Below, one piece after another: positions 13,227 through 17,406 of a stretch of DNA of 64,000 nt. The DNA comes from Candidatus Thorarchaeota archaeon. Lineage in GTDB: Archaea; Asgardarchaeota; Thorarchaeia; Thorarchaeales; Thorarchaeaceae. The DNA lies in contig CAVSBO010000004.1 in the NCBI GenBank assembly GCA_963726195.1, positions 256,001-320,000 of the forward strand. Direction: 5' to 3'. The position numbers and the translations under genes were made by a program. Positions within the stretch are counted from its first letter, which is position 1. Each line of letters starts with the position of its first letter. The notes beneath the pieces were generated by a model that did no database searches, was not told where the DNA came from, and saw only the letters and a list, made by a program, of their open reading frames with translations.

Positions 13227-14231
13227 ATGCATTCGAGAATCACTTACAGCCCCGTTCTGAGAAAGTACGTGAAAGCGCACAACTTGGAAGAGAAGCTATA
13301 TTCGATAGTAGATCTACTGGGCACTGATGCTCAAGATGTCATAAGATGGGCGGAGTCGGAAGCCAGCCGCAGGAATCGGGAAGGGTCCGCCCCGGAGAAT
13401 TCGGATCTTGGAAAAGTCATGTTCGAGCTCATAGGGAATGAAGCCGCGGTCAGACTGATTCAGTACAACGAATCGAGAGGTAGATTGACAACTCGGAGTG
13501 AAGTGAGTCTTAGGACAGGACACAGGGCTGACATGCCCTACCTGTATCAGGAGGCGGGATTGAGGCATCCTCAGGAGGCTAGGAATCTCCGCCATAATTT
13601 GTTTCATCGGTCCTTCACCGCCTTGGTCTCACGTATATTTCCAGATGTGACCACAAGTGTGCCTGTCACAGGTGAAGGTTTGACGCCTGACCTCATGGTG
13701 AACCACAGGAATCCTGACTGGACGCTCTGTGTCGAATACAAGGGTTATCGCTCCATGACGCTTCTGAGTGAAGCAGAAATCATCAAGGCCATGCGATATC
13801 AGCAGGCCTACGGTTCTGCATGGCTTGTCACAACAACCATGAAGACAGTTCAGTCTCTCTACGGCAGCAAACTCTCGTCCGAGAAGCTAATTGAGGGCGG
13901 CATTGTCAGACTTGAGCGAATCACGAAGCGGAAGACCTTCACCGACGAACAACGGGAAATCAGGGGCATTGCAAAGAAGGGTCTTTTGCAGCTCGAGAAA
14001 GTGCGCGGCATGAGCCTGCGGTGCGATCTAGTATCTGCAGATGACATGATTGCGTCCTGTCGTCAAGGAACTCCAATCAAGGCCTTGGCGATAACTACTG
14101 GCCTTGAACTGGCTGAGATGCTTGACAAAGAAGGCCTAGGAGAGCAGGCCACACAGATCAGAAGAGTGATGAAGGTGCCAACGGACCTTCTACATAGCGA
14201 CTCGGTGACGTCACTTCGGCTCTTGAGCTGA
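13227..14231 (+). CDS. PD-(D/E)XK restriction-endonuclease-like fold protein
   Basis: TPDLMV...CVEYKG, followed by KAMRY and AWLVTT. Confidence 0.65.
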   Translation: MHSRITYSPVLRKYVKAHNLEEKLYSIVDLLGTDAQDVIRWAESEASRRNREGSAPENSDLGKVMFELIGNEAAVRLIQYNESRGRLTTRSEVSLRTGHRADMPYLYQEAGLRHPQEARNLRHNLFHRSFTALVSRIFPDVTTSVPVTGEGLTPDLMVNHRNPDWTLCVEYKGYRSMTLLSEAEIIKAMRYQQAYGSAWLVTTTMKTVQSLYGSKLSSEKLIEGGIVRLERITKRKTFTDEQREIRGIAKKGLLQLEKVRGMSLRCDLVSADDMIASCRQGTPIKALAITTGLELAEMLDKEGLGEQATQIRRVMKVPTDLLHSDSVTSLRLLS

Positions 14232-14293: not shown

Positions 14294-14749
14294 GTGGCAG
14301 TCTCAGCTCGCACGTTAACTCTGAAGAAGCTGTTCGTCTTGCCGGAAGCCAGGCATTCAAGACAATTGAGCGCGAAGAGCGTGCCCTCTCATCTTAGGGA
14401 GCTGCTGAAGGACCTATGCACCACATCACCCGTGCTTGGAGCAGCCATCTTCACTGTTGAGGGACTACCTTTTGTTAGCTACTTCAACACGGGCACTGAA
14501 GACGTCACTGTTGCTGCCATGGTTGCCAGTCTTCATTCCACAAGTGTTCAGATGCTCAACGAACTACGACAAGGTTCCCTAAAGTCAATAATCATAGAAG
14601 GCACAGGCGGAAAGACAGTCGTAGTGTCTGTTCCACCTGGGTATGTCTTGGCAGTTATCGCTCCTGATATCGCGCGGACGGGACTTGTGTTCGGCGATGC
14701 TAAACGTGTCGCAAGAGAATGCACCAGACTAATCGAGCAAGTTGGTTGA
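14294..14749 (+). CDS. Roadblock/LC7 domain protein (start may be 14366 or 14381)
   Basis: GAAIFTVEGLP, VAAMVASL, ELRQGSLKSIIIEG, TGLVFGDAKRVA. Confidence 0.9.
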   Translation: MAVSARTLTLKKLFVLPEARHSRQLSAKSVPSHLRELLKDLCTTSPVLGAAIFTVEGLPFVSYFNTGTEDVTVAAMVASLHSTSVQMLNELRQGSLKSIIIEGTGGKTVVVSVPPGYVLAVIAPDIARTGLVFGDAKRVARECTRLIEQVG

Positions 14750-14760
14750 GCGAGTCTCGA

Positions 14761-15595
14761 ATGACAGAATCCTATCCGTTTCAGCACCACCCTTGTTGGT
14801 CGGAGAGTAGAACAGAGCTTTGGGAAAGAATCCACCTTCCGGTAGCGAGAGGCTGTAATGTCAAGTGTGCGTTTTGCGACGGCCTCTCTGCAGTCTCTTG
14901 TCACGTGCAGCGTCCCGGCACTGCAAGTCGAACGATGCCAGCTGAGCGTGCAGTCGAAGTTGCGAAGAGAGAATTGAGTCGGCGAGCAAATCTTCATATA
15001 GTCGCAGTCGCGGGTCCCGGTGAACCTTTGGCTAATGCTGCCACTTTCGAGGTTATGAACAAGCTGAGTCGACAGCTGTCCCAAAGTTCACTTCTGTCTG
15101 AGCACGAACGGAGTCCTTCTGGCAGATAGGGTGAACAAGCTTGTCCGTCTGGGCATTGAGAGCCTGAGCGTCTCCATGAGTACAAGTGAGCCTGCAACTG
15201 CCGCAACAATCTATGAATGGGCCGAACTCTGTGGGACGCGGGTTACTGGAATCGGCATGGGCAAGAGAATCGTGGAGATGCAGCTAGCCGGAATCAGACA
15301 AGCAACAGATGCGGGAATTCACGTGAAGATCAATTCGGTGCTTATCCCCGAAGTGAACGATGAAGACATTGCCACGTTGGCCGAGGACGCGGCCTTCGCG
15401 GGGGCTGAACTTCAGAACATTATTCCACTAGTGCCTTGTGGGACGATGTCGACGTATAGACCGCCAAGTTGCGAGGAACTAGAACAAGCAAGAGCAGGGG
15501 CTCGCAAGCATATCAAGCAGTTCTGCAGTTGCCGTCAGTGCAGGGCAGACGTGGTTGGCATTCCCGGTGCTGACACTTTGATCTGGAGTGGTTAG
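14761..15595 (+). CDS. nifB: NifB-like radical SAM protein (frameshift at ~15081)
   Basis: HPCW, RIHLPVARGCNVKCAFC, QRPG, VAGPGEPLAN, CLSTNG after frame repair, KINSVLIPEVND, NIIPLVP, CRQCRAD. Confidence 0.8.
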
Positions 15596-16422
15596 AGAAC
15601 CACCAAGCATCCAACCTCGACGAGTTTGTTGACCAGAAACCAAATTGCGTTTCTGTCGTACTGCAGAGAATCCATAATGTCCTTGACGCGTCTCGTTCCA
15701 TCACAGACTTTCAGTATATCGTCCACTGGCTCTCCATATTCTCCTCTCAGTTTCTGCAGTGCTGATGGACTGCAGTCTCGCTTGCCGAGCCTATCCGAAT
15801 CTACAAGCTTCTTCTTGAATTCAATCCATCCATACTTCTGCAGAATCGAGACGAGGGCCACAACTTGGGTTTCAGGCAGGTCAATGAGATTCATAATCTC
15901 GCCAATCGTGCGCTTCCCATTGATGTATCCTTCAAGCCTCTCGAGCTGACTGTCAATCACGCCGACCCGGAACGGTATGTGCTGACCTTCCTTTCGACGT
16001 AGTGGAACCAGGTTGACATCGGGTTCGCTATAGGGAAACTCAGTAAGTATGGTCCAAGCAAACTCCCTGAATCGCCTTATGTCTCCTTCGAAGGCCCTGA
16101 TCTTCTCGCCATGTTCCTCTTCGAGGAGCCTGAGAATCTTGACAAGGCGTTCACGATAGGGGGCTTCGTCAGGTACAGGGTCCACGACCAATAGGACGAG
16201 AACAGTCTCTCCCACTTCAATGAGAATATCATAGGCGGCTTTGCGGATTGTTCTAATGGGTGTCTTCGCGAAGATGATGACCGCCGACACAAACCCTGCT
16301 ATCAAGTCGGGATCAACTGTCATCTCTGCATACGGCACGCTCAAGATTGACTCGCCACCTTCAAGGCGAATCAAGGAAACGTACCGGACTTTGGACACAT
16401 CCAGCGGCATTCTTATCAACAC
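15592..16422 (-). CDS. Longin-like domain + two winged-helix repeats (NPRL2/NPRL3-like), paralog A
   Basis: DPDLIAGFVSAVIIF longin signature; LVP...YINGKRTIGEI...LQKYGWI; second repeat CDGTRRVKDI...LVEVGCL. Confidence 0.7.
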   Translation of the reverse strand: MLIRMPLDVSKVRYVSLIRLEGGESILSVPYAEMTVDPDLIAGFVSAVIIFAKTPIRTIRKAAYDILIEVGETVLVLLVVDPVPDEAPYRERLVKILRLLEEEHGEKIRAFEGDIRRFREFAWTILTEFPYSEPDVNLVPLRRKEGQHIPFRVGVIDSQLERLEGYINGKRTIGEIMNLIDLPETQVVALVSILQKYGWIEFKKKLVDSDRLGKRDCSPSALQKLRGEYGEPVDDILKVCDGTRRVKDIMDSLQYDRNAIWFLVNKLVEVGCLVVL

Positions 16423-16561: not shown

Positions 16562-17406
16562 TCAGGCCTCAGTGAATCCAAGGACGCCTGCGTCCACAAG
16601 ACTCTTGGCCACGGTCAGCAACACTTCCATGCTGTAGGCAAGGAAAGCTGCCACATCCTTCAAGCTCTTGGTCCCATCGCAGAGCTCCACAAACCGGTTT
16701 ATTTGTTCGCCATATACTCCTACGAGAAACTTGTGAGGGTCGCTGAGCTTAACGAGGCAAGTTTCCTCTGTTATCTTTCTGCCAAAGGTTGTCCAGCCGA
16801 AATGATCGAGAATCGATATGATGGCCACCATGTCTTCTTGAGATAGGCCGGTCGATTGCATTATCCCATTTATCGTTCTCTTTCCGTTGATGAAGCTCAC
16901 AACGGTCTGGATCTCTTGTCAGCCTCGCCGACGCTCCAAGGTATGGGGGCGTACCCCTCGAATGCTGGGTCCGATTTCTTGGACAGTCTGGGGACTAGCT
17001 CCCATTCAAACCTGCTGTATGGATAGGCTCCAAGTATGTGCAAAGCAAACTCTCTGAAAGGTCTGACATCCCCTTTCCAACTCTCGAGCTGAACTCCATA
17101 CTCAGTCTCAAAGCTGTTGATGATGCTCTTCAAGACATCTCTGTAGGGGTCCTCGTCATCAACCCTGTCCAAGATGAGCAGCCCGACCATCTGTTTCCCC
17201 TCTTCGATTAGTACCACGTATCCCTCCTTCACAAACCTCCTCAATTGCCTATTCTCGAAAATGACCACTGCGAGCACGAAACTGGCGACCAAATCAGGGT
17301 CTACGCTCATCTCACGATAGGTGATGCCTATGACGGGTTCGCCACCCTCTTTTCGCACGAGCGAGATGTAGCGTACGTGTTCTTCGTAGCTGTTGGTCGC
17401 ACTCAT
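16562..17406 (-). CDS. Longin-like domain + two winged-helix repeats (NPRL2/NPRL3-like), paralog B (frameshift at ~16914)
   Basis: VRYISLVRKEGG...DPDLVASFVLAVVIF; FINGKRTINGI; CDGTKSLKDV. Collinear with paralog A once ORFs 16897..17406 and 16562..16900 are joined. Confidence 0.7.

Follow-up and report, generated by a model that had tools for sequence, protein, structure and literature searches.

The gene at 14761..15595 (+) of the window, i.e. of the whole 64,000-nt stretch of Candidatus Thorarchaeota DNA that was analysed, encodes a member of the NifB family according to both its sequence and its fold. By analogy with characterised NifB proteins, the product is probably a working NifB-type enzyme that carries three clusters and hands an 8Fe, presumably carbide-containing product to a new recipient. 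NifB has been kept in this lineage while no known user of such a product was found in 86 genomes of the family, which implies either a new user or an altered chemistry. Before 2025, the assembly of nitrogenase cofactors was the one role known for NifB. The interest of the present case lies in the implied client and not in the fold of the enzyme.

Sequence motifs were located in the protein obtained by reading through the frame break described below, i.e. by skipping one extra base within the 277 codons. They comprise HPC (residues 10-12), C32-x3-C36-x2-C39, RPG (51-53), AGPG (84-87), STNG (113-116), and C257-x2-C260-R-x-D263. The initial annotation had listed these NifB fingerprints with the reservation that the Glu of the ExRP motif was absent, and both points were borne out: all motifs are present, and the loop in question reads C47-H48-V-Q-R-P-G, with the Glu of ExRPG missing. 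A NifX domain, the lack of which had also been claimed, was not found in the protein, which ends at 277 aa. The NCBIfam nifB model (TIGR01290) matched both halves of the gene contiguously (model positions 10-107 at 67.3 bits and 109-279 at 126.9 bits). The summed score of approximately 194 bits lies below the equivalog cut-off of 343.65, for a model whose 441 positions include the bacterial NifX domain that archaeal NifB does not possess.

Comparison with solved structures gave the same assignment. The read-through protein (P0002) matched the PDB entries for NifB (7bi7, 7jmb, and 6y1x) with E-values of approximately 1e-57 over residues 8-270. An AlphaFold2 model of the intact allele reached a pLDDT of 94.5 and a pTM of 0.92, with lower values in the loop formed by residues 41-50 (mean 63). 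When this model was compared to the PDB using Foldseek, the top five hits were all NifB (for 7bi7, TM 0.90, rmsd 1.7 Å, 264 columns, E = 1e-29), and the next radical SAM enzymes followed at E = 5e-10 and a TM of approximately 0.6. The model thus matches the NifB fold, a 3/4 barrel with N- and C-terminal cluster-binding straps, as seen in the superposition on 7bi7. The closest known counterparts in architecture are the archaeal single-domain NifB proteins of Methanothermobacter thermautotrophicus (7BI7/7JMB) and Methanothrix thermoacetophila (6Y1X), which are likewise about 280 aa long and devoid of NifX. They share 38% identity with the window protein at a TM of 0.90, as well as the positions of HPC, RIH, CxxxCxxC, AGPG, CLSTNG, and CxxCRxD. 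The mobile loop differs, however, being SSCH..(K/R)PG in the Thorarchaeota clade (hereafter the Thor clade) and ECERRPG or C.NESRPG in the archaeal single-domain proteins.

A broken reading frame had been suspected from the outset and is real in the assembly. Frame A extends from 14761 as far as a stop codon at 15127-15129, frame B is open from approximately 15068 to 15595, and the break is located within 15060-15080. Contig L004 (1.9 kb, from a public read set), which is 99% identical at the DNA level and shows the same order of upstream gene, Roadblock gene, and NifB gene, encodes an intact protein of 277 aa (P0003) that is 98% identical to the window protein. Where the window reads AAGCTGAGT, this contig reads AAGCT-AGT. 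The alignment places one extra G at 15066 (15066..15066, +; a +1 frameshift in the context AGCT[G]A), and this is the sole length difference in the 200 aligned bases. Another single-base frameshift, 1.8 kb away near 16905, splits the conserved gene at 16562..17406 (−) into ORFs of 169 and 112 aa. Orthologs of that gene in two related loci (L029 and L032) are continuous and read SVGETDKKVQTVIGYINGKRT in one frame, whereas the window shifts frame after SVGEADK.

When the G of AGCTGA was deleted throughout the genome, an ORF spanning the site reappeared at 6.1% of the 2419 sites; six control hexamers gave 2.5-3.8%, and random positions gave 3.8%. This background is high, and the rescue of 3.8% at random sites suggests that single-base indels are dense in this assembly. 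k-mer counts of AGCT, AGCTA, and AGCTGA (observed/expected 0.85-1.08) did not discriminate and were less informative than the ORF rescue. Because the 99%-identical contig without the G is intact and a second single-base frameshift occurs 1.8 kb away, we attribute the break, with good confidence, to faulty base calling or assembly and regard the gene as intact in the organism itself. The initial annotation had also considered that the frameshift might be real and the gene dead. Such a decaying relic would fit the frame as it stands in the assembly, but it appears highly improbable in light of the intact public-read contig, the neighbouring conserved gene that is also broken by one base, and the enrichment of AGCTGA sites at frameshift junctions across the genome. 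Moreover, no further damage was seen, all ligands are retained, and about 70 related genomes carry the gene in intact form.

The distribution of the gene was analysed at several levels. A word-indexed search returned 241 homologs, nearly all of them about 276 aa in length, and those with a named source came from Thorarchaeota or related Asgard archaea. Among 400 Asgard genomes searched, a NifB-like gene was detected in 71 of the 85 other genomes of the family (44-73% identity); other Asgard families contained only scattered and more distant homologs (35-39% identity). Five of the 14 family genomes without a match were examined. Four also lacked the 334-aa gene that flanks the locus, and in the fifth (G368) the gene begins right after the Roadblock gene and then enters a scaffold gap of 100 N. 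As the tested absences coincide with a missing flank or a scaffold gap, the NifB-like gene is probably universal in the family.

When 1.84 billion representatives were searched exhaustively, about three full-length ones (P0058, P0056, and P0123) covered the clade, with scores dropping from 272 to approximately 210 bits between the Thor clade and the rest of the NifB family. A phylogeny, as proposed in the initial annotation, confirmed this separation: the Thor clade formed a single group both in FastTree (131 rows) and in a quick run of IQ-TREE (56 rows, LG+C20), with support values of 99 and 97. Its stem has a length of 0.79, and it joins neither the large group of canonical NifB nor any of the other Asgard NifBs, in trees whose backbone has no resolution. 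Position and stem length both set the clade apart from the archaeal single-domain NifB proteins described above, as does a host without nitrogenase or MCR. Given the long stem outside canonical NifB, the function may have shifted.

Ligand assignments for the clusters were taken from PMC8179604 and PMC6053413. In MthNifB, the K1 cluster is bound by C18, H31, and C115, i.e. the Cys of HPC, the His of RIH, and the Cys of CLSTNG (PMC8179604), and the K2 cluster by C260 and C263 of the C-terminal CxxC (PMC8179604, PMC6053413). According to the alignment, the equivalents in the window protein are C12, H25, and C112 for K1, and C257 and C260, followed by R-x-D263, for K2; the Cys residues of the radical-SAM cluster are C32, C36, and C39. 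All of H10, P11, C12, H25, C32, C36, C39, C112, C257, C260, and D263 are kept in 100% of 112 homologs (approximately 45-70% identity), and the same residues do not vary in an alignment of 69 sequences, canonical NifB among them.

By analogy with solved NifB, we infer a working single-domain NifB-type radical SAM enzyme of the Thor clade, itself specific to this family, with three [4Fe-4S] sites: (i) the radical-SAM cluster at C32/C36/C39; (ii) K1 at C12/H25/C112; and (iii) K2 at C257/C260. The carbide chemistry would then consist in the fusion of K1 and K2 into an 8Fe cluster with a carbon derived from SAM, and the product would be passed to a recipient other than NifDK/NifEN-type proteins, McrC, or Mmp7.

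The mobile loop is where the protein departs from the canonical pattern. The loop Cys-Glu of MthNifB (C52 and E53) has been called strictly conserved; the Glu is regarded in canonical NifB as a transient fourth ligand of K1 that is needed for the formation of NifB-co, and its replacement abolishes NifB-co while SAM cleavage persists (PMC8179604). A Cys-Glu loop was not found in the window protein, in which the Cys is kept and the Glu is replaced by His48. Among the 112 homologs, 90% have C47 and 96% have H48, in a loop that exceeds the canonical one by two residues. His can serve as a ligand of Fe-S clusters, and His48 in the mobile loop may take the role of the Glu as transient fourth ligand of K1. 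G123, an Asgard genome with McrC, likewise encodes a NifB whose loop contains His and lacks Cys-Glu. The exchange of Glu for His is therefore by itself no argument against NifB chemistry, though it may alter that chemistry. As a natural Glu-to-His variant, the loop should be useful for probing the NifB mechanism.

Possibly, the NifB scaffold has been turned to a different reaction, e.g. the formation of a carbide-free fused 8Fe cluster or another radical SAM reaction on an Fe-S cluster or a small molecule, in which case there would be no client for an L-cluster. The loop, with its Glu-to-His exchange and two additional residues, would be in keeping with such a change, given that substitution of the Glu in canonical NifB kills NifB-co and spares SAM cleavage (PMC8179604); so would the RAD motif, which is mostly RSD in the clade, the long stem of a separate clade, and a score under the NCBIfam nifB cut-off. 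Yet no ligand of K1, K2, or the radical-SAM cluster varies, and neither do the AGPGEPL and STNG motifs that bind SAM; the model superposes at 1.7 Å on NifB with bound K clusters; and some NifBs of McrC-carrying genomes have loops that likewise lack Cys-Glu. On balance we regard an altered chemistry as unlikely, and prefer a NifB-type enzyme with an 8Fe, presumably carbide-containing product.

The NifB product is known to be received by proteins of the NifEN/NifDK type, among them Mar and other nitrogenase-like systems, all of which belong to PF00148. Since 2025, McrC and Mmp7 of the MCR activation complex have been proposed as further recipients (PMC12176620; PMC13474568). The 86 family genomes searched for these proteins include 23 that are at least 90% complete, and many of the relatives are fragmented MAGs. 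In the window's own genome (88.9% complete), no match was found to PF00148, which covers NifD/K/E/N, Mar, Cfb, and Bch. Across the family, matches numbered 0/86 for PF00148, 0/86 for McrC (PF04609), and 0/86 for Mmp7 (TIGR03274). In the search for a NifH-like partner, the sole PF00142 match in the window's genome was the P-loop of an Mrp/NUBPL ATPase. The genome check for nifH/D/K/E/N, Mar, and Cfb homologs suggested in the initial annotation thus yielded no PF00148 protein and, for PF00142, only this ATPase. It had been reasoned there that a genome lacking NifDK/EN-like proteins would imply a novel client for a NifB-type cluster; PF00148 is indeed absent from the genome itself and from all 86, and we infer the existence of such a client on this ground. 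The searches for McrC and Mmp7 went beyond the candidates named there.

Identical searches recovered clients where they were expected. Five other Asgard genomes with a NifB homolog were examined, and four have a client, namely a PF00148 gene no more than 2 kb from the NifB homolog in G007 and G077, and McrC at 316-343 bits in G128 and G123. Clients were also found in control methanogens. In the fifth Asgard genome (G308, 100% complete), neither McrC nor PF00148 was found. The nearest outside lineages of the tree follow the same rule: P0240 and the P0136 cluster are located inside NflH/D/K clusters, i.e. next to a NifH-like and two NifD/K-like genes, and P0127 and P0130 come from Methanomethylicia, which are MCR-bearing methanogens. 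With clients present in the controls and in the outside lineages, the Thor clade is an exception to a rule that otherwise holds.

A client of a known type may still have been overlooked, being too divergent for PF00148, PF04609, and TIGR03274 or located in unassembled parts. The incompleteness of the genome (88.9%), the fragmented state of many related MAGs, and the fact that the HMM searches on six-frame translations sit behind a fast pre-filter, so that a very divergent client could slip past the three HMMs, leave some room for this explanation. We nevertheless consider it improbable: none of the 86 genomes, including the 23 that are at least 90% complete, gave a match; clients were recovered by identical searches in four of the five other Asgard genomes and in the control methanogens; and there is no NifH-like partner, the only PF00142 match being the Mrp/NUBPL P-loop. 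In the literature searched, there was no paper on NifB in Thorarchaeota or Lokiarchaeota, on an absent client, or on a link to Roadblock proteins.

Several loci met during these searches deserve mention in their own right. The lineage of G308 and G309 (family f30) carries a NifB gene (L040 6638-7441 (−), corresponding to G308:C6:676643-677428; L041 6005-6808 (+)) with the loop CDQKIGCSYHAFRPS; its sister in the tree is the NifB of an McrC-bearing Asgard genome. Its neighbours encode GcvH, SepSecS, an FrhB-like protein, an integrase, and an LRR protein, among which there is no obvious partner. Two metagenomic loci (L048 2381-10939 and L050 265-9638) contain uncharacterised nitrogenase-like clusters, each with a NifH-like gene, two NifD/K-like genes, and a NifB-like gene, together with one to three further radical SAM genes and genes for SAM methyltransferases. 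The surroundings of one cluster include genes for a B12-binding radical SAM protein, an ABC exporter, and a PP-binding carrier protein. A further locus, in the window's own genome (L037 3466-6768 (+), corresponding to G000:C3:892465-895767), combines a VIT1/rubrerythrin-like gene, an Mrp/NUBPL Fe-S carrier ATPase, DUF134, and two tandem PF02579 genes; the two NifX-like genes could act as carriers. As a clue to a client, NifX-like genes (PF02579) were dismissed as uninformative, being present in 333 of the 400 Asgard genomes regardless of NifB.

NifB has been described in two settings that invite comparison. In methanogens and alkanotrophs that have no nitrogenase, NifB lies outside any nif context and is a core gene of the lineage, as is the case here. 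It has been proposed to supply [8Fe-9S-C] to McrC and Mmp7 in these organisms (PMC12176620; bioRxiv 10.1101/2023.10.20.563283), and NifB is essential in methanogens irrespective of nitrogenase (bioRxiv 10.1101/2023.10.20.563283). The MCR activation complex represents a second use of [8Fe-9S-C] clusters (PMC12176620). Those methanogens and alkanotrophs have both McrC and Mmp7, whereas neither was found in the 86 genomes of the window's family. The second setting is that of the NflB/MarB-type homologs of NFL clusters (PMC13474568), which resemble the present protein in being divergent and single-domain and in having variant loops. Their genes adjoin NifH-, NifD-, and NifK-like genes, however, while the window gene adjoins a Roadblock gene, and none of those three was found in the genome. 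Reviews list 'archaeal proteins of unknown identity' among the possible recipients (PMC13474568).

Tentatively, and with a little less than even confidence, we propose that a NifB-type 8Fe carbide cluster is made in this family to serve a third class of metalloprotein, one that belongs neither to the nitrogenase family nor to the MCR activation complex. A near-universal NifB in an Asgard family without a known recipient offers a defined place to seek a further L-cluster enzyme. If the proposal is true, L-cluster chemistry reaches Asgard archaea that are neither methanogenic nor diazotrophic. The enzyme is small and single-domain, like the methanogen NifBs that express well in E. coli, and is therefore directly testable.

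The NifB gene is embedded in a conserved locus. It is directly preceded by a Roadblock/LC7 (MglB-like) gene at 14294..14749 (+), whose product matched Pfam PF03259 (Robl_LC7) with 45.7 bits against a cut-off of 23 (E = 5e-12, profile positions 4-91 of 91). The Roadblock stop codon (TGA) occupies 14747-14749, the NifB start codon (ATG) begins at 14761, and the 11 nt between them (14750..14760, +) confirm the spacing given in the initial annotation. On the other side lies a convergent gene of 276 aa (15592..16422, −), usually followed by its paralog, which in the window is the gene with the split frame at 16562..17406 (−). Of 30 related loci, which come from many genera, 29 show the order 334-aa gene, Roadblock gene, NifB gene, and convergent gene. 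Roadblock orthologs of about 130 aa precede NifB in 29/30 loci, with a spacing of −4 to +15 nt in about 26 of the 30; the outliers elsewhere are due to naive start-codon choice. This spacing fits co-transcription and, in places, translational coupling, and it suggests that the Roadblock and NifB-like genes probably share one transcript.

Tight spacing and invariant order raise the question of whether the Roadblock protein is functionally tied to NifB. One genome of the sister family was searched (G311, 96% complete), in which the syntenic block and the Roadblock gene are present. Its block (L052 4627-9985 = G311:C21) comprises a 183-aa gene, a 334-aa gene, the Roadblock gene, the ortholog of the convergent 276-aa gene, DUF2797, and a second radical SAM gene. 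The convergent ortholog directly faces the Roadblock gene at a distance of just 50 bp. NifB was not found in G311, nor was the second paralog of the convergent gene. Since G311 keeps the Roadblock gene at the syntenic locus without NifB, the Roadblock protein is probably not a dedicated partner of NifB. Either NifB was gained beside the Roadblock gene in the ancestor of the family, or it was lost in the sister family; the Roadblock gene is independent of NifB in both cases. No invariant Cys or His was found in the Roadblock orthologs, and the protein was rejected both as a cluster carrier and as a dedicated partner on these two grounds.

The same observations bear on a reading in which the NifB-like protein is not a cofactor-building enzyme at all, being instead the input device of a regulatory module whose Fe-S or SAM state is read by the Roadblock protein and putative longin-winged-helix neighbours. 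Roadblock, NifB, and the two convergent genes form an invariant series in the 30 loci, with tight spacing between Roadblock and NifB, and this is what such a module would look like. G311, however, retains the same Roadblock and convergent gene together without NifB, no GTPase was noted at the locus, the Roadblock protein has no conserved metal ligands, and a sensor needs no full conservation of two substrate-cluster sites. We give a sensory role very little credence and retain that of a cluster-building enzyme.

The neighbours downstream and upstream were characterised as far as homology permitted. The convergent 276-aa gene (15592..16422) shows 39-87% identity across all 30 related loci, and a Pfam search returned no match for it. 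The upstream gene (13227..14231, +; 334 aa) was likewise without a match in Pfam. It is the 5′ neighbour on the same strand in 29/30 related loci, and the remaining locus ends early. Its product contains a conserved PD...EYK motif and the strongly conserved segment GLRHPQEARNLRH, and its look-alikes in the atlas are Mrr_cat clusters (score 0.90) and Mrr_cat/HTH proteins of Nanobdellota, a lead only, which makes an Mrr-like PD-(D/E)xK nuclease fold probable. The 334-aa protein was dropped as a candidate client owing to this resemblance to Mrr-type PD-(D/E)xK proteins; it is given here as context and is not thought to be part of the NifB function. At the 3′ end of the NifB-like gene, its stop codon overlaps that of the convergent 276-aa gene by 4 nt (15592-15595), leaving no space for a terminator between the two transcription units.
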